NCBI GenBank assembly: GCA_964465015.1
Contig: CAYXHP010000148.1
Location: forward strand, 2,072 to 66,071
Reading direction: 5' to 3'
Length of the DNA stretch: 64,000 nt
From: an uncultured Gemmatimonadota bacterium
Lineage (GTDB): Bacteria; Gemmatimonadota; Gemmatimonadetes; Palauibacterales; Palauibacteraceae
The notes under the pieces are model-generated. The model had not been told where the DNA came from and ran no database searches. It worked only from the letters and a program-made list of their open reading frames with translations. The first letter of the stretch is position 1. Every line of letters starts with the position of its first letter. Shown piece by piece: positions 1-16,659 of the stretch. The position numbers and the translations under genes are program-made.

Positions 1-566
1 AGCGCGTCCTGGACGCCCTCCGAGGGCTCGACGGGGCGCGTGACATCCCGCTCCAGCGCCTCGCGAGGCACAGGGAAGCCCTCCCGGTGCAGGTGGGCCA
101 GGAAGGCGTCCCACAGCGTCGGGCCCGCCAGGCGGCGCTCCAGCCGCGCGCGGGCCTCGCTCCCTTCCGGATAGCGCTCCAGGATCAGGGGCCGCTTGAG
201 CCCGAGCGCGAACTCGAGCTCCCGGAACTGGAACGACTCCAGCCCGCTGGCCTGGTCCAGCCGGTCCCGGAAGGTGAGGAACTCGCGCGGGGTCATCGTC
301 TCCAGGATGTCGATCTGTCCCACCATGACCTTGAGGATGGTGAGGATCCGCTTCATGGCGTGGAGCGCCACGGGCAGGTCGTCGCGGTCCAGGATCGCCC
401 GCACGTAGTCCAGCTCGTGCAGCACCTCCTTGAACCACAGCTCGTACACCTGGTGGATGACGATGAACAACATCTCGTCGTGCTCCCCGGCCCGCAGGCG
501 CTGCAGCGAGAGGAGCTCGTCCAGGTGCAGGTAGTCGGCGTAGGTCAGGTAGCGTTCCGGCTCCAC
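1..566 (-). CDS. kynA: Tryptophan 2,3-dioxygenase, N-terminal part. The gene runs off the window start. GTG start at 566..564, 1 nt after the stop of the upstream gene.
   Basis: Reverse-strand translation gives VEPERYLTYADYLHLDELLSLQRLRAGEHDEMLFIVIHQVYELWFKEVLHEL...TMTPREFLTFRDRLDQASGLESFQFRELEFALGLK. This matches the conserved HDEMLFI.QHQ..ELW and TP.EF..FRD..SGFQS.QFR..E blocks of bacterial tryptophan 2,3-dioxygenase. The + strand ORFs here (87..740 and others) are low-complexity antisense frames. Confidence 0.85.
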   Translation of the reverse strand, partial: MEPERYLTYADYLHLDELLSLQRLRAGEHDEMLFIVIHQVYELWFKEVLHELDYVRAILDRDDLPVALHAMKRILTILKVMVGQIDILETMTPREFLTFRDRLDQASGLESFQFRELEFALGLKRPLILERYPEGSEARARLERRLAGPTLWDAFLAHLHREGFPVPREALERDVTRPVEPSEGVQDA

Positions 567-567
567 G

Positions 568-2847
568 TCAGTAGCCCCATTCGAAGCGAGGCGTGTAGTC
601 GTCCAGCGTCGAGTACGGCTTCGGCCACGGCAGGTCGTAGCCGAGCGCGTACGCGGCGTGGCGCGTCCAGTAAGGCTCCCACAGGTGGGCCCGGGCCAGG
701 CAGCACAGGTCCGCCCGGCCGGCGGCCAGGATCGTGTTGACGTCCATGTAGGAGGAGATGTTGCCCACCGCCATGGTGTGGATGCCGACCTCGTGCCGGA
801 TCCGGTCGGCGAAGGGCGTCTGGAACTGGCGCCCGTAGCGAGGCTTCTGCCATGGCACCGTCTGGCCGGCCGAGACGTCCACGATGTCGCCGCCCGCCTC
901 CGCGACCCGGCGTGCCACCTCCACCGCGTCGTCGGCGGTCATCCCCCCCGGGGCCCAGTCCACCGCGGAGATCCGGACCGAGATCGGCCGCTCCTCGGGC
1001 CACACCGCCCGCACGGCGCTCAGCACCTCGAGCGGGTAGCGCATCCGGTTCTCGAGCTCGCCCCCGTACTCGTCCTCGCGCTCGTTGGTGAGGGGGGAGA
1101 TGAAGCTGGCCAGGAGGTAGCCGTGCGCGAAGTGGATCTCTAGGAGGTCGAAGCCGGCCTCCACGGCCATCTCGGCCGCGCGGACGTACTCGCGCAGCAC
1201 CCGGTCCATGTCGGCTCGGTCCATGGGTCGGGGGACCGGATTCTCGGGCTTCCAGGGAAGGGGAGACGGGGCCAGCACCTCCCAGCCGTCCTCCTCCAGC
1301 GGCTCCACGTCCCCTTCCCAGGAGAGCTTCGTCGCGCCCTTGCGGCCCGCGTGCCCGAGCTGGAGGCCGATCCTGGCCGAGCTCCGGTCGTGCACGAAGT
1401 CGACGATCCGCTTCCACGCGGGAACGTGCTCGGGGAGGTACATGCCCGTGCACCCCGGCGAGATCCGTCCCTGGGCGCTGACGTTCGTCATCTCGCTCAT
1501 CACGAGGCCCGCGCCGCCCACCGCCCGGCTCCCCAGGTGCACCAGGTGCCAGTCGTCGGGTGTCCCGTCCACGGCCGAGTACTGGCACATGGCCGACACG
1601 ACCACGCGGTTCTCGAGCACGAGACCTCGAAGCCGGAACGGGGTGAACATCGGCGGGGGCGGCGGATCCGTCCGGATGGCGACGCCCGACTGCTCCGCGG
1701 CCCGGCCGGCGAACCAGCGGTCCACATCCGCGGTGAATGTCGGGTCGCGCATCCGCAGGTCCTCGTGCGTGATGCGGAGGCTCCGGGTGAGGAGCCCGAA
1801 AGCGAACTGGAGCGGCTCGTCGTCCATGTAGCGCTCGGTGCCCTCGAACCATTCCAGGCTGGCGCGGGCGGCGCGCTGCAGGCTCTCGACGTCGGGCCGC
1901 CGCGCCTCCTCGTAGGCCGGGAGCGCACGGCACGGCTGGTTCCCGTGCGCGGTCAGCGCATCCCGGAGCGCGATGGCATCGATCATGGCGATGCGCGTAC
2001 CCGAGCCCACCGAGAAGTGGGCGGTGTGCGCCGCGTCCCCGATGAGCACCGTGTTCCCGTGCCACCATCGACCGGTGCGCAGGGTCGGAAAGTGCCGCCA
2101 GATGGAGCGGTTCCGGATGAGCGGGTGCCCCTCGAGCTCCTCCTCGAACAGGTCGGCGCAGAAGGCGGCGGCCGCCTCTTCGTCGTCCTCCGGCAGGCCC
2201 GTGGCCGCCCACGTCTCATCGCGCGCCTCGACGATGAAGGTCGAGTGCGCCTTCCCGTCCCTGGTCGGCTCGTACTGGTAGGCGTGCACGCGCCACAGTC
2301 CGTGCCGGTCCTCGCGGAAGTAGAACGTGAAGGCCCGGAAGGGACGCGTCGTGCCGAGCCACACGAAGCGGTTGGGCCGGAGGTCGATGGTCGGCTGGTA
2401 ACGCTCCGGGTGGAGCCCGCGGACCGTGCTGTTCACCCCGTCGGCCGCCACGAGGAGGTCGGCCTCCTCCCACGGCGAGAGATCGGTGACGTCGACGCCG
2501 TGCCGGAGGTCCACGCCCAGCTCGCGAGCCCGGGCCGAGAGGATCTCGAGCAGGGTCGAGCGGGCGAGGCCCGAGAAGCCGTGTCCGGTGGAGCGCAGGC
2601 ACGCCCCCCGGTAGTGGATGTCGATGTCGTCCCAGTGGTGGAAGTGGCGGGTGATCTCCGCGTAGCTGGTCGGGTCGGCGGCGGCGATCTCCTCCAGCGT
2701 GGCATCCGAGAACACGACCCCGAAGCCGTAGGTGGCGCCGGGCGGGTTGCGCTCCAGCACCGTGACCTCGTGCGTCTCGTCCTGGAGCCGCATGAGGATG
2801 GAGAAGAAGAGCCCGGCGGGCCCGCCCCCGACGCAGACGATCCTCAC
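568..2847 (-). CDS. Bifunctional flavoprotein with an N-terminal FAD-dependent aromatic monooxygenase domain and a C-terminal Old Yellow Enzyme-type FMN reductase. Family of 2-aminobenzoyl-CoA monooxygenase/reductase and salicylyl-CoA 5-hydroxylase. GTG start at 2847..2845.
   Basis: The N-terminal part reads [15 protein letters not shown] (GxGxxG Rossmann) ...[16 protein letters not shown]. The C-terminal part reads [13 protein letters not shown]...[32 protein letters not shown]...VRISAVDW, an OYE TIM-barrel. It is about 760 aa. The 1252-aa ORF on the track is this gene plus upstream out-of-frame junk. GTGA overlap with the upstream ACAD stop. Confidence 0.85.
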
Positions 2848-4154
2848 GCCGGCTCCCCGGCCGCGGCGCCGCCGGCGCGCGGGCTCACCCGTTTGGCCCC
2901 GGTACCGTCCGGGCCCGTCTCCTCGGCCCCGCCGCCACGCCGGGTCGCCTCCACCAGGTGGCCCGCGATGATGAGGCGCTGGATCTCCGTGGTCCCCTCG
3001 TAGATCCGTAGCGCCCGCACCGACCGGTACAGCCGGTCCACCGGGTGGTCGGCCAGGACGCCGCGCCCTCCCAGGATCTGGACGGCTTCGTCCACGATCC
3101 TCTGCGCCGCCTCGGTCGCGTGCGCCTTGGCCATGGCCGACTCGACCGTGGTCCGCTCGGCGCCGCCGTCCCGCTCCCACGCGGCCCGGTAGGTGAGGAG
3201 ACGCGCGGCCGTCAGCTCGGTGGACATGCGGGCGAGCTTGTCCTGGACGAGCTGGAAATCGGCCAGCGGTCGACCGAACTGGCGGCGGGAGACGGCGTGG
3301 AAGAGGGCTTCCCCCAGCGCCCGTGCCGCCATGCCGCAGGCGGCGGCCGCCACCGTGGGTCGAAGCCGGTCCAACGTGGCGAGGCCGATCCCGAGCCCCC
3401 GGCCCTCCTCGCCGATGCGGGCCGCGGCCGGGACCCGGCAGCCGTCGAGCTCGATCTCGCCGAGCGGGTGAGGGGAGGAGAGGACCTGCGGCCCGGCGAA
3501 CCGGAGGCCGGGGGCCCCGGCCGGGACCACGAAGGCCGACACGCCCCGCCGCCCCGCCCCCGGGTCCGTGGCCGCGAACACCACGTAGAAGTCCGCGATC
3601 CCCGCGTTCGAGATGAACGCCTTGCGGCCGTCCAGGACGTAGTCGTCCCCGTCGCGAACGGCCCGCGTGGTCAGCGAGGCCACGTCGGACCCCGCCTCCG
3701 GCTCGGTCATGGCGAAGGCGCCCATGGCCCGCCCCCGCACCGCCGGTCCCAGCCACCGCTGGCGCGGCTCGCACTCGCCGGCCAGCACCAGGGGAGTCGC
3801 GGCCAGTCCCTGGAGGGCGAACACCGCGTCGGCGAGCGGGGAGGCGCCGGCGAGCGCCTCGCGCACGAGGCAGCAGGCCCGGAAATCCTGCGCCGCGATC
3901 GGACCCAGCCAGCCCCCGTCGCCGAGGAGCTCGAGCAGGTCGCGGGCCTCGCGGCGCGCCGCCGCGTCGTCGGCCGGCTCGGGCCTCGACGCGATCTCGC
4001 GCGCGCACATCCTTGATGCCTTCCCGGCCAGCTCGAGGTGACGCTTCTCCAGGAAGGCGCGTACCGGGGATGGGTCGGGGATCGCCGTTTCGCTCCCGAT
4101 GCCGGTGCCCCCTCCCACGTTCGCCGGCCGGCCGCGGAGCTTGTCGTCGGTCAT
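2844..4154 (-). CDS. Acyl-CoA dehydrogenase
   Basis: Motifs [23 protein letters not shown] and [16 protein letters not shown]. The true ATG is at 4154..4152 (MTDDKLRG...) and overlaps the stop of the upstream hydratase as ATGA. The track ORF extends upstream as Arg/Pro junk. Confidence 0.85.
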
Positions 4155-4981
4155 TCGAACCGCGTCTCCCGCTTCTCCACGAAGGCCTCGTAGGACTCGC
4201 GGAAGTTGGGATTCTGCATGCACACGGCCTGGACCTTGGCCTCCGCTTCGAGCGCGCTGTCCAGGTCCAGGATCGCTTCCCGGTTGAGCGCGTCCTTGGT
4301 GACCTCGAGGGCGAAGGAGGGCCCACGGGCGAGCTTCTCGGCCAGCTCGCGCGCTTCGCCGACCACCCGGTCGGCCGGGACGACGCGGTTGTAGAGGCCG
4401 ATGCGGTGCGCCTCGGCGGCGTCGATGAAATCGCCGGTCATGAGGAGCTCGGTGGCCCGGCCCAGGCCCACGATCCGCGGCAGGAGCCACGAGGCGCCCA
4501 TGTCGGCCCCGGAGAGCCCAACCCGGGTGAACAGGAAGGCGATCTTCGCGGTCTCGGACGCGATGCGGAGGTCGCACGCCGACGCGATGACCGCCCCGGC
4601 CCCGGCCACGGTCCCGTTCAGGGCGGCCACGACCGGCCGCCGGCAGGCCCGGATCGAGCCGATGAGGTCGCAGGTGAGGCGCGTGAAGGCGAGGAGGCCC
4701 TGGAAGTCACGCTCGAACAGGCGTCCGATGATGTCCTCCACGTCCCCTCCGGAGCAGAAGCCCCGGCCGCGGCCGGTGAGGAGGACGGACCGCACGCCGG
4801 GCTCCGTGTCCAGCGCCCGGAAGGCGTCCCGCAGCTCCTCGTACACCTCGAACGTGAGGGCGTTGAGCCGCTCGGGGCGATTCAGCGTGATCGTGGCCAC
4901 CGAGGTGGCCTCGTCGTGCTCGTACAGGAAGGACGTGGGTTCGATGGGCATCCGGCTCTCCGGTTCAGGATCCGTCCCCAT
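4151..4981 (-). CDS. Enoyl-CoA hydratase/isomerase (crotonase fold). Alternative start at 4951 (MPIEPTSF...).
   Basis: [12 protein letters not shown]...[12 protein letters not shown] (oxyanion-hole motif) ...[12 protein letters not shown]...[17 protein letters not shown]. Confidence 0.85.
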
Positions 4982-5420
4982 GGGTGGTCCGGGGCGGTGG
5001 CGCGGTGGCGGCTTCCCCGGGCGGCAGCACGGCGGTGGCCTCGATCTCGATCACCGCTCCCTCGTCGACGAGGCCGGTGACCTCCACCACGGCCATGGCC
5101 GGGTAGTGCCGGCCCATGAGCTCGCGCCACGTGGCTCCGAGCGGCCCGAGGGAGGCCCGGTATTCGTCGAGGTCCGTCACGTAGACGGTCATGCGTCCGA
5201 TGTGGGTCGGCCCTCCGCCGGCCTCGCCGACGACCGCCAGGACGTGGGACAGGGCACCGCGAAACTGGGCGGCGAGCCCTTCGCCGCGGATGCGGCCGTC
5301 CGCATCCCGGTCCGTCTGTCCCGCCACGAACACGAGGCGTCCGCCCGCCGGGGCCACCAGACCGTTGTTCCAGCCGCGGGGCTCCCCGAGCGCCTCCGGG
5401 TTCACGATCCGGAAGCTCAC
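4965..5420 (-). CDS. ridA: RidA/YjgF/TdcF-family protein (reactive-intermediate enamine/imine deaminase). GTG start at 5420.
   Basis: VSFRIVNPEALGEPRGWNNGLVAPAGGRLVFVAGQTDRDADGRI...MTVYVTDLDEY...PAMAVVEVTGLVDEGAVIEIEATAVL. It has a ~19 aa Pro/Ala-rich C-terminal tail. GTGA overlap with the stop of the upstream SDR. Confidence 0.8.
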   Translation of the reverse strand: MSFRIVNPEALGEPRGWNNGLVAPAGGRLVFVAGQTDRDADGRIRGEGLAAQFRGALSHVLAVVGEAGGGPTHIGRMTVYVTDLDEYRASLGPLGATWRELMGRHYPAMAVVEVTGLVDEGAVIEIEATAVLPPGEAATAPPPRTTHGDGS

Positions 5421-6235
5421 GCGAGGAGCTCTCCGCCGTCCATCACGATCGCCTGGCCGTTGATGCCCCGGGCGCCCTCGCCGCACAGCCACAGCGCGGC
5501 GTCGGCCACCTCCTCCGGCTCGATGAGGCGGCCCTGGGGGTTCATGGCCACGATCGCCTGCATCGCCTCCTCCTGGGAACGTCCCGTCTTGAGGGCGACG
5601 TTTCGGGCCGAGGCCAACGTCATCTCCGTGCTCACGTAGCCCGGACACAGCGCGTTGACCGTGACGCCCCGGCCGGCCACCTCGGCGGCCGCGCAGCGCG
5701 CGAGGCCGAGCACCGCGTGCTTGGAAGCGGCGTACGCCGCGGTGTAGCGGGCCCCGGTCAGGCCGGCCACGGAGGCCACGTACACCAGCCGTCCCCAGCC
5801 GCGCTCGGCCATGGAGGGCAGGAAGGCCCGCGTGCACAGGAAGGAGCCGGTCGCGTTCACCTCCAGCACCCGGCGCCACTCCTCGAGCTCCAGGCTGCGG
5901 ATCGGCGCGGCGGAGGCGATCCCGGCGGCATGGACCAGGATGTCGGCCGGACCGAGCTCCGCCCCGGTTCTCTCGGCCAGGGCGCCGACCTGGACGGCGT
6001 CCGACACGTCGCACGGGACCGGGGTCGCGCGCCCCCCGGCGGCGCGGATCTCCTCCGCCACGGCCTCGATCTCGCTCGCGCTGCGGGCGCTCACCACGAC
6101 CGCCGCTCCCGCCGCGGCCAGCCGACGTGCGGCGGCCGCCCCGATCCCCCGTCCCCCACCGGTGACGACCGCGATGCGGCCCTCGAGCGGGGTGGCCGCG
6201 CCGCGGCCCGCTTCGGCGGCGCCACGGGCCGTCAC
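5417..6235 (-). CDS. SDR-family oxidoreductase (FabG-like), canonical active site. GTG start at 6235.
   Basis: Motifs RIAVVTGGGRGIGAA, NATGSF and YAASKHAV (YxxxK) ...CPGYVST. GTGA overlap with the creatininase-family stop. Confidence 0.85.
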   Translation of the reverse strand: MTARGAAEAGRGAATPLEGRIAVVTGGGRGIGAAAARRLAAAGAAVVVSARSASEIEAVAEEIRAAGGRATPVPCDVSDAVQVGALAERTGAELGPADILVHAAGIASAAPIRSLELEEWRRVLEVNATGSFLCTRAFLPSMAERGWGRLVYVASVAGLTGARYTAAYAASKHAVLGLARCAAAEVAGRGVTVNALCPGYVSTEMTLASARNVALKTGRSQEEAMQAIVAMNPQGRLIEPEEVADAALWLCGEGARGINGQAIVMDGGELLA

Positions 6236-7005
6236 GCCGTCCTCCCGGAGCGGCCGGGGAGCGCCTCCAGGACCGCCTCGGCCAGGATCTCGCCCAGGAC
6301 CCGGATCGTCTCGCTTCCCTCCCCGGCCGAGGCGTCGGCCGGGGAGCCGCAGTACGCCCGGTCCATGCCGGCCTCCTCGAAGCTGGTCTTCCCCTGCCCG
6401 ATGGCCGCGGAGAGCGAGACCGGGACCGGGGAGAGGCTCCGCCGCACCTCCTCGCGGACCAGCTCGGGACGGGCGGCCAGCACCACCGACGCCTCGAAGC
6501 GGCCCGCGTGGCACTCCCCGCTCCGGAACTCCTCCCCCAGGCGTTCGGCCCAGCGGCGCGTGGCGAGGTCGGGGAAGACCGGGACCAGGAGGCCCCGCGC
6601 CTCGATCTCCCGCGCCGCCTCGCGCAGCGAGCCCCGGTGCCCGGGATCCACGTGGGGGCTCGCCAGTCCCAGGCACCCGACCCCGTGCCGACCCAGGCTG
6701 GCGGCCACGTCCACCACGAGCGCGGTCACGGTCTCGGGACGCACGTCGATCGTCCCCGGGAAGGCGGCGGCGAAGCCCGCCGCCGTGTACGGAAGGGTGG
6801 GGAGGAGGAGCACCTCGAGGCCCCTGTCGGACAGGCGCCGGGCCGCGTCCGCGACCATGGCCTCCGCCATGATCCCGTCCGTGGCCAGGGGGAGGTGTGG
6901 TCCGTGCGCCTCGAGGGCGCCCACGGGGAGCAGGGCGACGGTGACCTCCGGGTCGAGCGACCCCAGCTCCTCCCAGGTGCACCCGGACAGCTCGCGTACG
7001 GCCAT
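6232..7005 (-). CDS. Creatininase / creatinine-amidohydrolase-family metal hydrolase. ATG at 7005; alternative GTG at 7053.
   Basis: ALLPVGALEAHGPHLPLATD...HGVGCLGLASPHVDPGHRG...ECHAGRFE. First gene of the minus-strand operon. Confidence 0.75.
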   Translation of the reverse strand: MAVRELSGCTWEELGSLDPEVTVALLPVGALEAHGPHLPLATDGIMAEAMVADAARRLSDRGLEVLLLPTLPYTAAGFAAAFPGTIDVRPETVTALVVDVAASLGRHGVGCLGLASPHVDPGHRGSLREAAREIEARGLLVPVFPDLATRRWAERLGEEFRSGECHAGRFEASVVLAARPELVREEVRRSLSPVPVSLSAAIGQGKTSFEEAGMDRAYCGSPADASAGEGSETIRVLGEILAEAVLEALPGRSGRTA

Positions 7006-7097
7006 GGTCCTCCGGTCGGGGGGAGCCTCCTGGACGGCCCACCGGGCCGCCACCGTCGAGTGTTGAGTAATGTTAGCGTGAGGGCGACATTCCGCAC
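7006..7097. promoter_or_regulatory. Divergent intergenic region with an AT-rich core (gagtgttgagtaatgttagcgtga) between the catabolic operon and the aryl-CoA ligase gene.
   Basis: It is 92 nt, the only AT-rich patch in a ~70% GC neighbourhood, and is flanked by divergent start codons. Confidence 0.4.
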
Positions 7098-8774
7098 ATG
7101 CCTCGATCCGAGACCGACGCGCTGGACGCCACCCGCTCCGTGGACGTGCCCTTGCGTCCGCCCGAGCGGTTCAACATCGCCGACTACTTCCTGGATGACC
7201 GCGTGCGGGAGGGCCTCGGCGAGCGCACCGCGCTGATCACCGACCGCGGAACCTACAGCTACGCGGACGTCCAGGCCCTGGCCAACCGCTTCGCCCACGT
7301 CCTGGTGCGGGCCGGCGTCGAGCCCGAGCAGCGCGTCCTCCTGGCGCTTCCAGACGGCGCCGAGCTCGTGGCGGCGCTGTTCGCCGTACTCAAGGTCGGG
7401 GCGGTGGCGGCGCTGGTGAATCCCGGGCTGTCGGCCGAGGAGATCGCGTACTTCCTGGGCTACACGCGGGCCGTGGTCCTGGTGACGCACGCCGGGAGCG
7501 TGGACACGTTCCGGGAAGCCCGCCGCCGCGCCCGGGCCGTCGACCCCGACTTCCTCAAGGAGGTGCTCGTCGTCGGGGACCCGGCCTTCGACGCGATCCT
7601 CGCGGAGATGCCCGACGCCTTCGAGAGCTTCCCCACCCACCGTGATGACGCGGCCATCTGGCTGTTCTCGGGCGGGACGACGGGGCGGCCCAAGGCCGCG
7701 GTCCAGACCCACACCTCCTACGCCAACGCTTCGGCCTGCTACGGCCGGCACGTGGTGGGCTACGGACCCGAAGACCTGACGATCTCGGTCCCCAAGCTCT
7801 ACTTCGGCTACGCGATGGGGGCCAACCTGTTCTTCCCGTTCGCCGTCGGCGCCACCTCCGTCCTGTTCCCCGAGCGCTGCACCTCGGAGCGGCTGTTCGA
7901 CCTCATCGAGCACCATCGGCCCACCGTGCTGGTGAACGTGCCCACCATGGTGAACCACCTGGTGAGCGACCCCGGCGCGCCCGGGCGCGATCTCTCCTCC
8001 CTCCGGGTTTCCACCTCGGCCGGCGAGGCGCTCCCGGTGGACCTCCACCGTCGCTGGGACGAGCTGTTCGGCGTCGAGCTCCTGGACGGTCTCGGCACGG
8101 CCGAGATGTGGCACATCTTCCTCTCGAACCGGCGGGGCGATGTCCGGCCGGGGACGTTGGGAAAGGCGGTGCCGGGCTACGAGATCCGCGTGTGCGACGA
8201 AGAAGGGCGGGAGCTGCCGGCGGGCGATACGGGGTGGCTGTGGGTGCGCGGAAACTCGCGCGCCATCGGCTACTGGCAGCGCATGGAGGAGTCCCGCCGC
8301 GCCTTCCGCGGCGAGTGGTACGCCTCCAGCGACATGGTCCGGCTGGACGAGGACGGCTACGTGGTCTACTGCGGACGCGGTGACGACATGCTCAAGGTCT
8401 CGGGAAAGTGGCTGTCCCCCAAGGAGGTGGAGGACTGCCTCGTGGAGCATTCCCGGGTGCGCGAGGCGGTGGTCGTCGGCGCGACGAACGCGGCGGGACT
8501 CACGAAGCCGTACGCGTTCGTGGTGCCGGCGCCGCCGGTCCCGGAGACCGAGGGCGGCGCGGCGGGATCCGGTGGGGGCCAGACCGGCGGGGCATCGGCG
8601 GCGGACTCGGCGACGGACCTCGCGGCCGTCCTGCAGGCCTGGGTGAAGGAGCGGCTCGCCCCCTACAAGTACCCGCGCCGCGTGCTCCTGGTGGACGACC
8701 TCCCCCGCACGCACCTGGGAAAGGTGGACCGGGGGGAGATGCGCCGGGTCGCCGAGGCGCTGGGCGAGGACTGA
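7098..8774 (+). CDS. AMP-forming aryl-CoA ligase of the benzoate-CoA ligase / 2-aminobenzoate-CoA ligase family
   Basis: Motifs NIADYFLDDRVREGLGERTALI, LFSGGTTGRPKAAVQTH, YFGYAMGAN, GDMLKVSGKWLSPKEVE and YKYPRRV...LPRTHLGK. Confidence 0.85.
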   Translation: MPRSETDALDATRSVDVPLRPPERFNIADYFLDDRVREGLGERTALITDRGTYSYADVQALANRFAHVLVRAGVEPEQRVLLALPDGAELVAALFAVLKVGAVAALVNPGLSAEEIAYFLGYTRAVVLVTHAGSVDTFREARRRARAVDPDFLKEVLVVGDPAFDAILAEMPDAFESFPTHRDDAAIWLFSGGTTGRPKAAVQTHTSYANASACYGRHVVGYGPEDLTISVPKLYFGYAMGANLFFPFAVGATSVLFPERCTSERLFDLIEHHRPTVLVNVPTMVNHLVSDPGAPGRDLSSLRVSTSAGEALPVDLHRRWDELFGVELLDGLGTAEMWHIFLSNRRGDVRPGTLGKAVPGYEIRVCDEEGRELPAGDTGWLWVRGNSRAIGYWQRMEESRRAFRGEWYASSDMVRLDEDGYVVYCGRGDDMLKVSGKWLSPKEVEDCLVEHSRVREAVVVGATNAAGLTKPYAFVVPAPPVPETEGGAAGSGGGQTGGASAADSATDLAAVLQAWVKERLAPYKYPRRVLLVDDLPRTHLGKVDRGEMRRVAEALGED

Positions 8775-8871: not shown

Positions 8872-9822
8872 CTATGCGGCTCCGACCAGCTCCCGCACCG
8901 GCGTCATCCCGCCGTGGGCGTCGGGGACCTCCCCGTGCACGACGCCCATGAAGCGCCGCTGGATCTCGCGGGTCACCGGACCCATGCTCCCCGCACCGAT
9001 CTCGATCCGGTCCACGCTGCGGACCGGCGTCACCTCCGCGGCGGTTCCGGTGAAGAAGAGCTCGTCGGCCGAGTAGAGGGTCTCGCGTGGGACCGGGCCC
9101 TCCCGCACCGGGATGCCGAGGTCGTCCGCCAGCGTGAGGATGGCGTCCCGGGTGATGCCCCGGAGCGAGGTGCCGTCCAGCGCCGGCGTGACGAGGGTTC
9201 CGTTCCGCACCAGGAACAGGTTCTGGCCGCTCCCCTCGCTCACCAGTCCGCCCGGCCCGAGCGCGATCCCCTCCGAGAAGCCGTTGGCGATCGCCTCGAG
9301 CTTGATGAGGGTGGCGTTGGTGTAGTGACCGGCGGCCTTGGCGGCCGAGGGGAAGGTGTTGGGAGCCGGCCGGTGCCAGCTCGACACGCACACGTCGACC
9401 CCGCGCTCCAGAGCTCCCTCGCCCAGGTAGGTCCCCCACGGCCACACGGGGATCCACGTCTCGATGGGGCTGGCGCGCGTGTCGAGTCCGGCCGCCCCGT
9501 ACCCCCGGAGCACCATGGGCCGGATGTAGCAGGAGGCGAGGCCGTTGCGGGCCACCACCGCGCCGCACGCCTCCTCGAGTGTCCCGGGCGGGTGCTCGGG
9601 CGCCATGTGATAGACCCGGGCCGAGTCGTACAGGCGGCGAATGTGCTCGGGGAGGCGGAAGATGGCCGGGCCGTCCGCGGTCTCGTAGCAGCGGATTCCC
9701 TCGAACACGGAGGCTCCGAACTGCACGGCGCTCGACAGCAGGTGGACGGTGGCGTCCTCCCAGCGGACGAACTCACCATCCTTCCACATCCACTCGGTCT
9801 CGGTGAACTGCGACGCAGGCAT
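8872..9822 (-). CDS. ilvE: Branched-chain amino acid aminotransferase. Probable start at 9789 (MWKDGEFV...).
   Basis: WMWKDGEFVRWEDATVHLLSSAVQFGASVFEGIRCY...GAAKAAGHYTNATL...LFFTGTAAEVTPV. Confidence 0.85.
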   Translation of the reverse strand: MPASQFTETEWMWKDGEFVRWEDATVHLLSSAVQFGASVFEGIRCYETADGPAIFRLPEHIRRLYDSARVYHMAPEHPPGTLEEACGAVVARNGLASCYIRPMVLRGYGAAGLDTRASPIETWIPVWPWGTYLGEGALERGVDVCVSSWHRPAPNTFPSAAKAAGHYTNATLIKLEAIANGFSEGIALGPGGLVSEGSGQNLFLVRNGTLVTPALDGTSLRGITRDAILTLADDLGIPVREGPVPRETLYSADELFFTGTAAEVTPVRSVDRIEIGAGSMGPVTREIQRRFMGVVHGEVPDAHGGMTPVRELVGAA

Positions 9823-9860
9823 CGTGTCTCTCCGCTCGGTCGTGGCCGCCCGACGGCGGC

Positions 9861-10637
9861 CTATAGAAGGGACCGGATCCAGCCGCCGTCCACGGCGATC
9901 GAGCTCCCGGTGATGTAGGAAGCCCGCTCCGAGGCCAGGAAGGCGACCAGCGCCGCCAGCTCGCGCGGCTCACCGATTCGGCCCATGGGGATCTCGCGGT
10001 TCCAGTGCTCGAACGCATCCTCCGCCCCGTCCGATGTACCGGCCAGCTCCTCCAGGCGCGCCGTGCGCGTGTAGCCGGGCATCACGTTGTTCACCGTGAT
10101 CCCCTGCGCCGCCACGTCGTTGGCCAGCGTGCGCGCCAGCCCGGTCACCGCGGCCCGCAGGCTGTTGGACAGGATGAGGTTCTGGACCGGTTGCTTCACC
10201 GCGATGGACGTGATGGTGACGATCCGACCCCAGCGTCGCCCCTTCATGTCCGGGAGGACGCGCCGAACCATCTCGACCACGCTCTCGAGCAGGAGCCGCT
10301 CGGCGGCGCGCCACGTCTCGAGGTCGTGGGTCTCGAACGACCCGGCGGGGGGGCCGCCCGTGTTCGTGACCAGGATCTCCACCGGTCCGAAGGCCCGTTC
10401 GGCCCCCGAGACCGCCGCGTCGATGCCCGTGGTGGTGGAGAGATCGGCGGCCACGGCGGCCACCTCGGCACCCGTCTCGGAGGCGATCGCCGCCCGGGCC
10501 TCCTCCAGCCGCTCCTCCCCGCGGGCGCACAGCACCACCCGCGCGCCCTCGGCCGCCAGCTCGGCCGCCACCGCCCGGCCCAGGCCGCTGCTCGACCCGC
10601 CCACGAGCGCCACCCGTCCGGTCAGTCCCAGGTCCAT
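9861..10637 (-). CDS. SDR-fold oxidoreductase with a non-canonical active site
   Basis: It has the VALVGGSSSGLGRA Rossmann motif and NTGG. The YxxxK position reads S-N-S-L-R (ITSIAVKQPVQNLILSNSLRAAV), so the catalytic Tyr/Lys appear replaced by Ser/Arg. Confidence 0.75.
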   Translation of the reverse strand: MDLGLTGRVALVGGSSSGLGRAVAAELAAEGARVVLCARGEERLEEARAAIASETGAEVAAVAADLSTTTGIDAAVSGAERAFGPVEILVTNTGGPPAGSFETHDLETWRAAERLLLESVVEMVRRVLPDMKGRRWGRIVTITSIAVKQPVQNLILSNSLRAAVTGLARTLANDVAAQGITVNNVMPGYTRTARLEELAGTSDGAEDAFEHWNREIPMGRIGEPRELAALVAFLASERASYITGSSIAVDGGWIRSLL

Positions 10638-10657
10638 CGCTCCTCCCCGGTGCTCGA

Positions 10658-11035
10658 TCAGTCCTCGTCGTGGAAGTAGTCGTCGGTCCCGTCCAGCCAG
10701 TCCTGCCTGGGTGGACTGAACACGTCCACGTCCAGCGTGTCCTCGAGTGCCTCGGCGCGGTGGGGCAGGTGCGAGGGGATGTGCAGCACCTCACCCGACC
10801 GGACTACGACCTCCTCCTCACCGTCCTCGCCGAGCCAGAAGTGGAGCGCGCCCTCCAGAATGTAGGTGAGTTGCTCGTTGTCGTGGGAGTGCTTCGGGAC
10901 GATGGCGCCGCGGTCCAGGTAGACCTGGGCGAGCATCATGCGCTCGCCGGTCACCAGCCGCCGGCTGATCACGTCCGTGACCGGCTCCCGGGCCATGTCG
11001 TCCCAGCGGAAATGCCGGGCCTTCGCCTCGTTCAT
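10658..11035 (-). CDS. Cupin-domain protein
   Basis: IVPKHSHDNEQLTYILEG...GEVLHIPSHLPHRAEA, a two-His cupin motif pair. Confidence 0.7.
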   Translation of the reverse strand: MNEAKARHFRWDDMAREPVTDVISRRLVTGERMMLAQVYLDRGAIVPKHSHDNEQLTYILEGALHFWLGEDGEEEVVVRSGEVLHIPSHLPHRAEALEDTLDVDVFSPPRQDWLDGTDDYFHDED

Positions 11036-11196
11036 GTCGTGGCTCCTCGCGTGGGTGGACTCCAGCTCAATGGGCGGCCGGAGGGGTCGTCGGGCAAGGG
11101 AGGAGCCGTGCGACAGGCGCCCGGGCCGGCGCGGTCCACCCGTCGGCTCGGAACGATGGCCCTATGGCCCTCGCCGGTCGGGGTGCGGGGGGGCGC

Positions 11197-11997
11197 TCAG
11201 GTCGAGTCGCTCTCCTCCCAGTATCGGGTGCTCGTGGCGGGAGCCCAGCGGGCGGGATCGAACAGGGCGGGGTCCAGAGTGTCCGGGGCCCGGATGTCCG
11301 AGTACTCCTCGGTCTGGAACAGCCGGCCGTCCACCCGCAGGTCCAGGTGCGTCTCTACCCAGCCGTCGCCGAGGGGCTGCCAACCGCCGATCGTCGCGTC
11401 CAGGAGCCTTCCGTCGCCGAGAGGCTGGATGTCGCGCACCGCCAGGAGCCGGTCCGCGTCGACCCAGAACTGGGGGGACGTCGTGTCCCCCGCCGCGGCT
11501 CCCACGATCCACACCGGACGGCCCTCGAGCGTGTCCCGCCGGGCCAAGGACAGGTCGATCCCCAGGCTGTCCAGCACGTGGGCCGAGCGCTCGACCGGCT
11601 GCAGGTAGACATCCGAGAGCAGCACGGCGAGCGGATTGGTGTCGGAGGCCGAGTCTGCCAGCTGGCCGGACCTGAACCCGTACCGCTGGCCGTCCACGTA
11701 GAGAACCCCGTTGCCCTCGGCCAGGGGCTCCATGTCGATGCGGAGCTTCCCGAGCGCCAGCGCCTCGTGCCAGAGCGTCGTGTCCTGGACCCCGGGCTTC
11801 GGGTATCGGATGGTCCGCTGCGTGAACGTCACGTAGGGAGGCCAGTGCCCCTGGTAGAGGTCGTGCATGGCCTGGAGCACCTCGTGGCCGCTGCGGAAGC
11901 TCCGGCCGGGGGGCGACCCGTCATCCGAGCCGCAGGCCGAGGTCACGGCGAGCGCGGCGGCGACGAGGACGGACGCGGCGGCGGCGGGACGATGCAT
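11197..11997 (-). CDS. Hypothetical lipoprotein
   Basis: Signal peptide followed by LAVTSAC|GSDD (lipobox-like). No recognisable catalytic motif. Confidence 0.55.
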   Translation of the reverse strand: MHRPAAAASVLVAAALAVTSACGSDDGSPPGRSFRSGHEVLQAMHDLYQGHWPPYVTFTQRTIRYPKPGVQDTTLWHEALALGKLRIDMEPLAEGNGVLYVDGQRYGFRSGQLADSASDTNPLAVLLSDVYLQPVERSAHVLDSLGIDLSLARRDTLEGRPVWIVGAAAGDTTSPQFWVDADRLLAVRDIQPLGDGRLLDATIGGWQPLGDGWVETHLDLRVDGRLFQTEEYSDIRAPDTLDPALFDPARWAPATSTRYWEESDST

Positions 11998-13199: not shown

Positions 13200-14945
13200 T
13201 CAGCCGGCGCTGTCCGCGCCGGTGTCCTGGCCTCCCCCCGTGACCTTCAGGTCCGCCGTCCGGCGGAACGTGGGCGGCCGACGTACCTTGGTGGCCTGCT
13301 CGAACGCGTATGCCAGCTTGAGGAGTGTGGGCTCGCTCCAGGCCCGGCCCACGAACGAGAAGCCGACCGGCAGCCCGAAGACGTAGCCGGCGGGCACCGT
13401 GATGTGGGGGTAGCCGGCCACAGCGGCGGGCGAGGTGAAGCTCCCGCCGGCGCCGACGTCGCCGTTCACGAGGTCGATCAGCCATGGCGGGCCGGACGTC
13501 GGGGCCACCAGCGCGTCGAGCCGGTGCGCGTCCATGACCTTGTCGATTCCCTCGGTCCGGGTGAGCCGGTGGTTCTTCTCGAGCGCCTTGCGGTAGGCGG
13601 CCTCGGTGAGTGGCCCCTTCTTCTGGGCTTGCAGCATGATGTCCTGGCCGAAGTAGGGCATCTCGCGGCCGGCGTGGGCCCGGTTGAAGGCGATCACGTC
13701 GGCCAGCGAGCGCACCGGCGCGCCCGGCCCGAGCTCCGTCAGGTACTTGTCGAGGTCCGCCTTGAACTCGTACAGGAGGACGTCGAACTCGGAGTCTCCC
13801 CACTTTCCGGCCGTGGCGATGTCGGCGGGGTCGACGAGCACCGCGCCCGCGTTCTTCAGGACCCGCAGCGCGTTCTCGGCGATCGCGTCGGCGTGGGGGT
13901 TGTAGCCGAAGTAGTGGCTCCGGGCCACGCCGATGCGGGCGCCCTTCAGCCCGGCGGGATCGAGGAAGCGCGTGTAGTCCTTCTCTACGTGGCCGCCGGC
14001 CGCCGCCGTGGCCGGGTCCCGGGGGTCGGGCCCCGCCATGGCGCCGAGCAGGAGGGCCGCGTCCCTCACCGTCCGCGCCATCGGCCCGGCCGTGTCCTGG
14101 CTGTGGGCGATGGGGACGATCCCGGCGCGGCTCACCAGCCCGAGCGTGGGCTTGATCCCGACCAGGGAGCTGGCGTTGGAGGGACAGGTCACCGACCCAT
14201 CGGTCTCGGTCCCGACCGCGACCGTGCAGAAGCTGGCCGAGGCGGCGGCCCCCGATCCCGAGCTCGAGCCGCACGGGGTGCGATCGATGGCGTACGGGTT
14301 CCGGCCCTGTCCCCCGCGGCCGCTCCATCCGCTCGAGGAATGGGAGGAGCGGAAGTTGGCCCACTCGCTGAGGTTGGTCTTCCCGAGCAGGATGGCGCCC
14401 GCGTCCCGCAGGCGCGCAGCCAGGTGGGCATCGCGCGGGACCTTCGCCCCGACCAGCGCCAGGGAGCCCGCCGCGCTCTCCATGCGATCGTCCGTGGCGA
14501 TGTTGTCCTTGAGGAGCACCGGGATCCCGTGCAGCGGCCCCCTCGCCCCCTTCGACTTGCGCTCGGCATCCAGCCGGTCGGCGATGTCGAGCGCTGCGGG
14601 ATTGGTCTGCAGCACCTGCGCCAGACGGGGGCCCTTCCCGTCCAGGGCGTCGATGCGCTCGAGGTAGGCCTCCGTGAGACCGCGCGCCGTGAGGCTCCCT
14701 TCCTCCATGCGCTTTTGGAGGTCGGTGATCGTCGCCTCCTCGTACTCGAAGGCCGGGATGTCGAAATCGGCCTCGCCGCCCTCCCCGCGCCGGGCGTCGC
14801 TCCGCTCCGCGTCCTGTCCGGCACAGGCCAGGGCGGCCGGTCCGGCGGCCACGGCCAGCCCTCCCACCGCCGCGTCGCGGAGGAAGTGCCGGCGGGTCAG
14901 CGGTCTCGAAGGCGTAGCCTCGACCTCGGGACGATGGTCTCCCAT
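13200..14945 (-). CDS. Amidase (amidase-signature family), Tat-secreted
   Basis: ATG at 14945 (MGDHRPEV...). It has an SRPLTRRHFLRDAAVGG twin-arginine motif and the GSSSGSGAA (GGSSGG-type) signature. The 777-aa and 727-aa ORFs on the track here are junk frames. Confidence 0.85.
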   Translation of the reverse strand: MGDHRPEVEATPSRPLTRRHFLRDAAVGGLAVAAGPAALACAGQDAERSDARRGEGGEADFDIPAFEYEEATITDLQKRMEEGSLTARGLTEAYLERIDALDGKGPRLAQVLQTNPAALDIADRLDAERKSKGARGPLHGIPVLLKDNIATDDRMESAAGSLALVGAKVPRDAHLAARLRDAGAILLGKTNLSEWANFRSSHSSSGWSGRGGQGRNPYAIDRTPCGSSSGSGAAASASFCTVAVGTETDGSVTCPSNASSLVGIKPTLGLVSRAGIVPIAHSQDTAGPMARTVRDAALLLGAMAGPDPRDPATAAAGGHVEKDYTRFLDPAGLKGARIGVARSHYFGYNPHADAIAENALRVLKNAGAVLVDPADIATAGKWGDSEFDVLLYEFKADLDKYLTELGPGAPVRSLADVIAFNRAHAGREMPYFGQDIMLQAQKKGPLTEAAYRKALEKNHRLTRTEGIDKVMDAHRLDALVAPTSGPPWLIDLVNGDVGAGGSFTSPAAVAGYPHITVPAGYVFGLPVGFSFVGRAWSEPTLLKLAYAFEQATKVRRPPTFRRTADLKVTGGGQDTGADSAG

Positions 14946-15229
14946 GACGTGGCTCCTTTTCGAAGAAGGGGAGGGTCGGCGCGCTCCCCGGCGCGCCCGG
15001 CCATGTTCGGTCGCGCGGGCGGGGTGCCGCAACCCGAACGCCCGCCCCGGGCACCGGAGCCGCGACCGGCCGGAGCCTCCGCGGGGTCGGCGCCGCGATG
15101 GAGAGGCCCGGCCCCGGTCCCGTCGCCGCGACGCGGGAGCGGCTCTGCCCGCCCGGACCGTTCCAACCTGCCCGGCCCGGCGCGTGTCCCATGCACGTAT
15201 GAGCGAGCCATCGGTGGCCGGCTGAAGCG

Positions 15230-15853
15230 GTGGAGTCCGTGATGCGTCCCGGGCGCGGGATGACGGGATCGGGCGACGCGTCCGGCTCCCCGGTTGACCC
15301 GGGGAGCGGCGGCACCCCGGCCTCGGGAGCCGCTTCGCGGCCGGGACGACCGGCCGGGCAGCGGGAGTCCCGGGAGGCGCGCTTCGAGCGCCTCTACCGG
15401 GAGAGCTCGGGGCGCGTGTACGGCCTGTGCCTCCGCATGTGCGGCGACCCCGCCCTCGCGGAGGAGATCGCCCAGGAGGCCTTCGTGAAGGCCTGGGAGA
15501 AGCTGGACACGTTCCGCGGCGAGGCCCGCATCACGACCTGGATGCACCGGCTCACCGTGAACGTGGCCCTGAACACGCTGCGCGGCCGCAAGCGCCGCCC
15601 CGCCACCGGCGAGGACCCGGAGGTGCTCGAGCGGCTGGGCGGCGGCACGGAGGACGGGGCGCCGGTGGACCGGATCGCGCTGGAGCGGGCGGTTCGGCAG
15701 CTGCCCGAGCGGGCCCGGATGGTGTTCGCGCTCTATGACGTGGAAGGATATCCGCAGGAGGAGATCGCCGAGATGATGGGCACGAGCGTAGGGACGGTGA
15801 AGTCTCAGCTGCACCGCGCCCGCCAGCTTCTGCGCGAGGAGCTCCGGGCGTGA
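15230..15853 (+). CDS. ECF (sigma-70 family) RNA polymerase sigma factor. The N-terminal start is uncertain; alternatives are at 15242 and 15260.
   Basis: ERLYRESSGRVYGLCLRMCGD...VKAWEKLDTFRGEARITTWMHRLTVNVALN...GYPQEEIAEMMGTSVGTVKSQLHRAR (regions 2 and 4). Confidence 0.85.
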   Translation: MESVMRPGRGMTGSGDASGSPVDPGSGGTPASGAASRPGRPAGQRESREARFERLYRESSGRVYGLCLRMCGDPALAEEIAQEAFVKAWEKLDTFRGEARITTWMHRLTVNVALNTLRGRKRRPATGEDPEVLERLGGGTEDGAPVDRIALERAVRQLPERARMVFALYDVEGYPQEEIAEMMGTSVGTVKSQLHRARQLLREELRA

Positions 15854-16659
15854 ACGCGCACCCGCACGAGGAGCGCGTGCACGACTACGTGGACGGGCTC
15901 CTGGCGGCCACCTACCGCGAGAAGGTCGAGGCCCATCTGGCGAGCTGCGCCACGTGCCGCGCCGAGGTGGAGTCGATTCGGCGCCTGATCGCGGCCGCGG
16001 CCGCGCTCCCGCGGAGCGTCGAGCCGCCCGCGTCGCTGTGGCGCGCCGTGGCCGCGCGGACCGTCGAGCGCGGAGAGGTCGCGGTCGGGGCGACCGGGCC
16101 TTCGCAGGGCGTGCGGCCGGCGGAGGTCGCGCCCCGTCGGGCCCGCGGGAGGGTGTTGTGGCTGGGCGCGCGCACGCTGCGCTCGGTGCGCTGGGAGCTG
16201 GCCGCGGCGGCCGCGGTCCTGGTGGCGCTGTCGTCCGTCGTGACCGCGGTGGTCGTGCGGGACGGCACCGGTGGCCCGGCCGGCGGCGACGCCCCGAGCC
16301 TGGCCGTCGGTGGCCCCAACGTCGGCGCGACGGAGGTCCCGGCCGCCGGGAACCCGACCGCTCCGGTGGCCGGGAACGCGACCGGGCCCGCGGCGGTCAC
16401 CGCGGCCTCTCTGGTCGAGTCCGCGTACGAGCCCACGGTGGCCCGGCTGCGAGCGGAGCTGGCCGCGCGGCGGTCCGAGCTCTCGCCGGCGACGATCGCC
16501 GTGGTGGACTCGAACCTCCAGGTGATCGACCGGGCTATCGCGGCGACGCGGGCCGCGCTGGCGGCCGACCCGAGCAGCCGGCCGGCGGCGAGCCTGCTGG
16601 CGACGATGTATCGCAAGAAGATCGGAGTGCTGGAGCAGACGCTCCGGCTCGGAACCTGA
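15850..16659 (+). CDS. Anti-sigma factor with a Zn-finger (HxxxCxxC) and a single transmembrane helix
   Basis: GTG start overlapping the sigma stop (GTGA). HLASCATCRAE motif. TM helix WELAAAAAVLVALSSVVTAVVV. Confidence 0.7.
   Translation: MNAHPHEERVHDYVDGLLAATYREKVEAHLASCATCRAEVESIRRLIAAAAALPRSVEPPASLWRAVAARTVERGEVAVGATGPSQGVRPAEVAPRRARGRVLWLGARTLRSVRWELAAAAAVLVALSSVVTAVVVRDGTGGPAGGDAPSLAVGGPNVGATEVPAAGNPTAPVAGNATGPAAVTAASLVESAYEPTVARLRAELAARRSELSPATIAVVDSNLQVIDRAIAATRAALAADPSSRPAASLLATMYRKKIGVLEQTLRLGT

Follow-up and report, generated by a model that had tools for sequence, protein, structure and literature searches.

Two members of the creatininase family, ArfB of archaea and BrbF of Sinorhizobium (SMc02977), function in riboflavin/F420 biosynthesis, where they deformylate an N-formyl-aminopyrimidine; formate is released from an N-formylated aromatic amine, and the bond broken is thus of the type present in N-formylkynurenine (PMC9478397). 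A gene of the same superfamily, here called CREAT, is found in an uncultured Gemmatimonadota bacterium, on a 64,000-nucleotide stretch of contig CAYXHP010000148.1 (the window; GC content ~72%, gene annotation covering positions 1-41,610), at the head of an operon with genes for the metabolism of tryptophan and 2-aminobenzoyl-CoA. From its genomic context and the precedent within the family, CREAT is probably an N-formylkynurenine formamidase, a reading to which we assign a probability of roughly 0.6. This role is favored because the family already holds two aryl-formamide deformylases; because clusters of Proteobacteria and archaea that encode the lower part of the pathway in the absence of tryptophan 2,3-dioxygenase (TDO, kynA) and kynureninase (KYNU, kynU) have no creatininase gene; because in Rhizobiales clusters with kynA and kynU the place beside the ligase that CREAT holds here is taken by an AFMID-like alpha/beta-hydrolase; because no other type of formamidase was found in the CREAT loci examined; and because planctomycete loci contain an isolated unit of kynureninase, ligase and CREAT. 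ArfB, which the earlier note on this DNA had rightly cited as a formamidase of the family, is thus joined by BrbF as a second precedent, but both enzymes differ from the proposed CREAT activity in their nucleotide substrate and biosynthetic role, and their likeness to CREAT is one of family and proposed reaction. As a case of gap filling, the argument is suggestive, not compelling.

Kynurenine formamidases of two other kinds can be compared with CREAT. KynB, a bacterial enzyme of the cyclase family with a binuclear zinc site and the motif HxGTHxDxPxH (also carried by the cyclase-family control used below), shares with CREAT the proposed reaction, the position in the pathway and the use of metal-dependent hydrolysis, but its fold and family are unrelated; if the formamidase proposal is right, CREAT would be at most an analogue of KynB and not a homologue. 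The AFMID, Bna7 and Drosophila kynurenine formamidase (KFase) enzymes, and a KFase-like hydrolase of Rhizobiales whose gene has the equivalent position, divergent from a ligase, also share the proposed reaction, but these are serine hydrolases of another fold without sequence similarity to CREAT. A literature search found no link between the creatininase family and kynurenine formamidase.

For the steps beyond anthranilate, the abm clusters of Azoarcus evansii, which serve the aerobic 2-aminobenzoyl-CoA pathway, have a ligase, a fused monooxygenase/reductase and beta-oxidation-like genes in common with the CREAT cluster (Schuhle et al. 2001 and Langkau et al. 1990, as cited in PMC3534580); the citing paper also summarizes the conversion of anthranilate to 2-aminobenzoyl-CoA and on to 2-amino-5-oxocyclohex-1-enecarbonyl-CoA. 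Unlike the abm clusters, the CREAT cluster has TDO, kynureninase and CREAT as an upstream extension and so starts from tryptophan, a comparison made at the level of genes and by way of proteobacterial plasmid clusters. The fate of the product of the monooxygenase/reductase, and the steps after it, were not found described in a search of the literature.

In the window, the six genes that follow CREAT lie on the same strand, joined by start/stop overlaps or minimal gaps, in the order CREAT-SDR-RidA-crotonase (ECH)-ACAD-ACMR-TDO. The GTG start of SDR at 6235 overlaps the CREAT stop, and the further junctions set the starts of RidA (5420), ACAD (4154), ACMR (2847) and TDO (566) against the stops of SDR (5417), ECH (4151), ACAD (2844) and ACMR (568), respectively. 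Given these overlaps and a divergent ligase gene upstream, the description of CREAT in the earlier note as the first gene of a tryptophan/aminobenzoyl-CoA operon is therefore correct, and the name of the operon is backed by matches to the NCBIfam models TIGR03036, PRK08255 and TIGR02262. The features concerned are these:

6232..7005, minus strand: CREAT, creatininase-fold amidohydrolase, proposed N-formylkynurenine (aryl)formamidase (PF02633, E 3.1e-51).
7006..7097, 92 bp: intergenic stretch separating CREAT from the divergent ligase gene.
7098..8774, plus strand: LIG, ligase of the benzoate-CoA ligase family, proposed anthranilate-CoA ligase (TIGR02262, 457 bits, cut-off 375).
5417..6235, minus strand: SDR oxidoreductase of the 3-hydroxyacyl/3-oxoacyl type (PF00106, E 1.6e-59).
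4965..5420, minus strand: RidA/YjgF-family protein, a candidate enamine/imine deaminase for the ACMR product (PF01042, E 1.8e-15).
4151..4981, minus strand: ECH, crotonase of the PRK08258 type, a candidate hydratase or ring-opening hydrolase (NF006107, 373 bits, cut-off 330); its start may instead be the ATG at 4951.
2844..4154, minus strand: ACAD, acyl-CoA dehydrogenase (PF00441, PF02770, PF02771).
568..2847, minus strand: ACMR, fused FAD monooxygenase and Old Yellow Enzyme (OYE) reductase, of the 2-aminobenzoyl-CoA monooxygenase/reductase or salicylyl-CoA 5-hydroxylase type (NF006101, PRK08255, 1098 bits, cut-off 1078).
1..566, minus strand: TDO (kynA), N-terminal 188 amino acids, the gene being cut short by the window's left edge (TIGR03036 trp_2_3_diox, E 2.5e-57; PF03301, E 4e-40).

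The CREAT reading frame extends on the minus strand from an ATG at 7005, preceded by GGAGGA, to a stop at 6232, and encodes 257 amino acids. Its GC content at codon positions 1, 2 and 3 is 0.78, 0.56 and 0.95, a plot of this quantity separates the successive minus-strand genes of positions 1-7005, and an identical protein is predicted on four independent metagenome contigs. The match to the PF02633 Creatininase profile (174.5 bits against a cut-off of 31.3) spans protein residues 9-245 and profile positions 3-238 of 238. By reading frame, codon-position GC, end-to-end Pfam match and recurrence on four contigs, CREAT is a real gene with exact coordinates, as the earlier note had it. That note had also called for a comparison of the metal site with that of creatininase, and in an alignment with the Pseudomonas putida enzyme all six metal and catalytic residues are kept: E32, H34, D43, H118, H166 and E171 of CREAT align with creatininase E34, H36, D45, H120, H178 and E183, and the six are invariant in 27 orthologues. 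An AlphaFold2 (AF2) model of the protein (pLDDT 93, pTM 0.91) was compared with the Protein Data Bank (PDB) by Foldseek, and the top 26 matches were all creatininase-fold chains, with TM scores of 0.66-0.73 (~0.72) and identities of 24-27%. Judged from family, fold and residues, CREAT is thus a predicted metal-dependent amidohydrolase of the creatininase fold with its catalytic site intact, and would be a cytoplasmic enzyme with a binuclear metal center of the Zn/Mn type.

If the proposed role is correct, TDO would convert tryptophan to N-formylkynurenine, which CREAT would hydrolyze to kynurenine and formate, and the same enzyme might also act on N-formylanthranilate. By analogy with creatininase, ArfB and BrbF, a metal-activated water molecule would attack the formamide carbonyl. 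Kynureninase, encoded just outside the window, would then yield anthranilate and alanine, the divergent ligase would convert anthranilate to 2-aminobenzoyl-CoA, and ACMR would form 2-amino-5-oxocyclohex-1-enecarbonyl-CoA. RidA, SDR, the crotonase and ACAD are candidates for the deamination, keto-reduction, ring opening and dehydrogenation that may follow. We infer the substrate of CREAT and each step after ACMR.

About 100 related gene clusters (loci, designated below by L numbers) were compared, and the neighbors of CREAT in them were tabulated by tblastn with the window's own proteins. In a scan of one genome per species of the Genome Taxonomy Database (GTDB), at least 521 relatives of CREAT were found, the best 80 of which (52-77% identity) come from Gemmatimonadota, Thermoanaerobaculia/Acidobacteriota, Eisenbacteria, Planctomycetota, ‘Multivoradales’ and Polyangiaceae (Myxococcota). 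Metagenomes contain many further homologues at 55-76% identity, and the few with a named source are labelled Gemmatimonadota or Thermoanaerobaculia. Orthologues at 52-77% identity are almost always located in the same cluster, which ends with TDO and kynureninase. The usual layout, seen in Gemmatimonadota, Eisenbacteria and others, consists of a divergent LIG followed by CREAT-SDR-RidA-ECH-ACAD-ACMR-TDO-KYNU, and is complete in 25 of the 34 loci with full flanks. LIG is divergently adjacent to CREAT in 52 of the 65 loci with enough upstream sequence, SDR lies directly downstream of CREAT in 55 of 69, and the crotonase is the most conserved gene of the lower module over the CREAT loci (68-93% identity). 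The final gene of the cluster encodes a divergent kynureninase (PDB 1qz9, E 8e-10).

The lower module also recurs in distant lineages. The order ACMR-SDR-MarR-ECH-ACAD-ligase-(thioesterase)-RidA is found on chromids and plasmids of Phyllobacterium, Paracoccus and Ralstonia, with ECH, ACAD and RidA proteins that are 37-51% identical to those of the window; SDR orthologues at 46-51% identity are present in the ACMR clusters of Phyllobacterium, Paracoccus and Sinorhizobium, and Ralstonia has only a weak match of the SDR2 type. A plasmid of Haladaptatus caseinilyticus (L100, 9366-22356) encodes a ligase of the benzoate-CoA ligase family and an LLM-class flavin oxidoreductase beside an FAD monooxygenase, followed by RidA-ACAD-MaoC-SDR-ECH, so that conservation of the SDR/RidA/ECH/ACAD core extends from Bacteria to haloarchaea. 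No TDO, kynureninase or creatininase-family gene was found in the ACMR clusters of Phyllobacterium, Paracoccus, Ralstonia or Haladaptatus. In six replicons from five genera, lower-pathway clusters with no TDO nearby contain no creatininase gene, and the four of these replicons that have a complete lower module also lack kynureninase, so a recurring lower module exists independently of CREAT. Clusters with the lower module only thus differ from CREAT clusters by three genes (TDO, KYNU and CREAT), and the conversion of tryptophan to anthranilate takes three enzymes. Searches of plasmids and chromids for CREAT orthologues yielded only paralogues of ~30% identity in uninformative contexts.

Clusters that start from tryptophan exist in Rhizobiales as well. 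On chromids of Sinorhizobium sp. RAC02 (L097) and Aminobacter sp. NyZ550 (L098), an alpha/beta hydrolase gene lies divergent from ligase-kynA-ABC transporter, with kynU and then ACMR-SDR further along; ECH-ACAD-RidA are also present in the Sinorhizobium cluster, and the Aminobacter stretch covered only ACMR-SDR. In the stretches examined, neither of these kynA-kynU-ACMR clusters contains a creatininase-family gene. The hydrolase (276 amino acids; L097 6197-7027, L098 13185-14012) is annotated only as ‘alpha/beta hydrolase’; among PDB entries with a named function, it matches Drosophila kynurenine formamidase best (4e11, E 2e-16). Close homologues are encoded on 62 plasmid records, and in Ensifer adhaerens, Ensifer sp. 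PDNC004 and Aminobacter niigataensis the coordinates of the records put the gene near kynA or ACMR. A hydrolase stands beside the ligase in clusters that start from tryptophan, AFMID-like in Rhizobiales and creatininase-like here, and neither type is found in clusters that start from anthranilate.

Other kynurenine formamidases were sought in the CREAT loci themselves. The KynB motif does not occur in any real reading frame of the window and 97 loci (1.45 Mb), tblastn of a motif-bearing cyclase-family control against the loci and the window gave no match, and the AFMID-like hydrolase of Rhizobiales is absent from the window and all CREAT loci. In L005, the closest relative examined (CREAT 76% identical), kynA is followed by the divergent kynureninase and then by unrelated genes, so a canonical kynB adjoining kynA just outside the window, part of what the earlier note had named as refuting its proposal, is not seen there. 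Near the plasmid-borne kynA genes of Paraburkholderia, Deinococcus, Embleya, Bradyrhizobium and Streptomyces, too, no kynB is annotated.

Two genes were considered as alternative formamidases and rejected. One is inserted between the TDO and KYNU genes of Eisenbacteria and encodes a Ser/Thr kinase with a PD40 propeller; the other is an amidase-signature protein at 13200-15032 of the window, which is syntenic only in L005 and lies outside the conserved cluster.

The earlier note had offered two roles for CREAT, and comparative genomics favors the one in which it is a non-orthologous N-formylkynurenine formamidase. The other, in which the hydrolase would act after the aminobenzoyl-CoA step, would place CREAT in the lower aerobic 2-aminobenzoyl-CoA pathway, where it could hydrolyze the enaminone (a vinylogous amide) of 2-amino-5-oxocyclohex-1-enecarbonyl-CoA with release of NH3, open the ring of the cyclic beta-dicarbonyl so formed, or hydrolyze a lactam side product. 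We consider this unlikely, and yet it stays in contention because in six loci (L006, L007, L017, L046, L067 and L079) CREAT is kept together with SDR-RidA-ECH-ACAD while neither TDO nor KYNU lies within 10 kb. The translational coupling of CREAT to SDR, its usual next neighbor, would also fit such a role, as would the absence of a published fate for the ACMR product and the breadth of a family that includes a cyclic-amide hydrolase (creatininase) and apparently a ring C-C hydrolase (IolN, to which CREAT has a weak match, E 6e-5). Set against these points, ACMR and the recurring lower genes of Phyllobacterium, Paracoccus, Ralstonia, Sinorhizobium, Aminobacter and Haladaptatus do without a creatininase-family gene (the Aminobacter stretch covering only ACMR-SDR, and Ralstonia having no confirmed SDR orthologue), so that this family does not belong to the core of the lower pathway; RidA, by deamination, and the crotonase, by ring hydrolysis of the BadI/Oah type, would already cover both hydrolytic steps; and L036, L037, L053 and L066 place CREAT with KYNU, TDO or LIG and no lower genes nearby. 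Slightly less likely still is the narrower proposal that CREAT is a hitherto unknown lower-pathway hydrolase which acts on the enaminone or cyclic beta-dicarbonyl of the ACMR product as a CoA thioester and is not a formamidase. It is improbable, though conceivable, that CREAT cleaves a different amide connected with the use of tryptophan or anthranilate, such as an N-acetyl- or N-acyl-anthranilate, an N-acyl-kynurenine or a small peptide, or salvages an off-pathway product of the ligase: the divergent ligase is its most conserved neighbor, two loci (L028 and L060) show only LIG and CREAT, and its best NCBIfam match is a peptidase, but no gene of the cluster would make such a substrate, and the product of TDO is the only amide known from the cluster's own enzymes.

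The possibility that CREAT is an ordinary creatininase or mycofactocin peptidase (MftE) that stands beside the operon by chance is suggested by the Pfam family name and by the automatic annotations ‘creatinine amidohydrolase’ and ‘mycofactocin precursor peptide peptidase-like’, and we regard it as very improbable. Matches to NCBIfam models were limited to MftE (TIGR03964, the best match), creatininase (TIGR04448) and IolN (NF041098), with scores of 97.9, 67.3 and 22.3 bits that fall below the equivalog cut-offs of 172, 235 and 245 bits. Creatininase (EC 3.5.2.10; P. putida, PDB 1j2t/1q3k) has the same fold as CREAT (TM 0.71, 25-27% identity) and the six metal and catalytic residues in common with it, but Trp154 and Trp174, the residues that stack on creatinine, are replaced in CREAT by Pro145 and Gly163, and Glu122 by Asp120. 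The genomic context differs as well, since among the annotated genes of the window and of L005-L007 there are no mycofactocin (mftA/B/C/D/F), creatinase or sarcosine oxidase genes; riboflavin and GTP cyclohydrolase (III) genes were likewise not found in this set. Cut-offs, substrate-binding residues and context together led us to reject a bona fide creatininase, MftE or IolN, and the association of CREAT with its cluster is conserved in at least five phyla, which argues against a chance neighbor.

Several observations weigh against the formamidase assignment. Besides the six loci with lower genes only and the adjacency of SDR in 55 of 69 loci, the three-gene difference between the two kinds of cluster is imperfect, because other genes (thioesterase, MarR, 3-hydroxyacyl-CoA dehydrogenase) differ between them too. 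The absence of kynB and AFMID genes concerns the loci and the window, a part of each genome, and many bacteria, Bradyrhizobium among them, have kynA and kynU without an adjacent formamidase gene, so that a cluster-encoded enzyme is not obligatory. The identity of CREAT to any characterized member of the creatininase family is only ~25-34%. Split clusters, in turn, point both ways and do not decide by themselves: next to the lower-only loci are L036, in which LIG is divergent from CREAT-TDO-KYNU, and L066, which has TDO-KYNU and a LIG divergent from CREAT, both without lower genes; the planctomycete loci L037 and L053, in which KYNU-LIG and a divergent CREAT form an island amid unrelated genes; and loci of the Acidobacteriota type, in which CREAT stands alone between a KYNU-TDO block and a lower block.

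Some features of the cluster and its relatives deserve mention in their own right. Directly upstream of the ligase start, an AT-richer island of ~36 bp (7062-7097) is almost invariant in L005 and L009 (proteins 76-77% identical) and is a candidate shared promoter or operator. The public gene call for L005 (12788-17155) merges ACAD, ACMR and TDO into one product of 1455 amino acids without an internal stop. In both L005 and L009 the two halves of ACMR fall in different tblastn frames; the merged product is probably an artefact of an assembly indel and not a true fusion. In L007 (14858-17519), ACMR is apparently split into OYE-type (486 amino acids) and FAD-monooxygenase (389 amino acids) genes in reversed order, with a PIN/antitoxin pair inserted between them and the acyl-CoA dehydrogenase gene. 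A gene for a Ser/Thr protein kinase of ~880 amino acids with a PD40/WD40 beta-propeller is present inside the cluster in L076 (16974-19625), L049 (10746-13406) and L066 (4396-7035), between TDO and kynureninase in Eisenbacteria and directly after CREAT in a Gemmatimonadetes locus.

Additional copies of the family also occur. The Longimicrobiales locus L028 has two creatininase-family genes (1610-2353 and 10651-11400; 58-59% identity) ~9 kb apart, and the Acidobacteriota locus L050 has a 37% paralogue near the main copy (about 1174, minus strand). On a plasmid of Tsukamurella tyrosinosolvens (L099, 7544-17607), an ACMR homologue is accompanied by RidA, a fumarylacetoacetate-hydrolase family protein, a cupin, a thioesterase and a ligase, in a context reminiscent of a salicylate/gentisate-type route; nearby, beside indolepyruvate oxidoreductase genes, are genes for a cyclase-family protein and a nitrilase-related hydrolase. 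This locus shows that enzymes of the PRK08255 type serve more than one pathway. On the ligase side of the operon, positions 8872-11997 and 13200-16659 encode a branched-chain aminotransferase, a second SDR, a cupin, a 266-amino-acid protein without a family match, the amidase-signature protein (610 amino acids) and an ECF sigma/anti-sigma pair; this block is mostly syntenic in the closest relatives (L005, and partly L009) and lies outside the conserved cluster.

If CREAT is indeed a kynurenine formamidase, it would represent a new functional subfamily within a known enzyme family, with a known reaction and a known type of chemistry. Because the chemistry of the family is not new and the pathway step is well known, the proposal is a useful functional reassignment and not the description of a new kind of system. 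It would imply that kynurenine formamidase arose three times, on the alpha/beta-hydrolase, cyclase and creatininase folds, with CREAT as the third and unrelated type. The labels ‘creatinine amidohydrolase’ and ‘mycofactocin peptidase-like’ would then be wrong for hundreds of proteins of Gemmatimonadota, Acidobacteriota, Eisenbacteria and Planctomycetota, a reassignment that would affect at least 521 species-representative genomes. It would also complete a self-contained cluster that leads from tryptophan by way of anthraniloyl-CoA into a beta-oxidation-like route in abundant, poorly cultured phyla of soil and sediment, and the SDR, RidA, crotonase and ACAD core provides a testable set of enzymes for the aerobic 2-aminobenzoyl-CoA pathway in its lower half.

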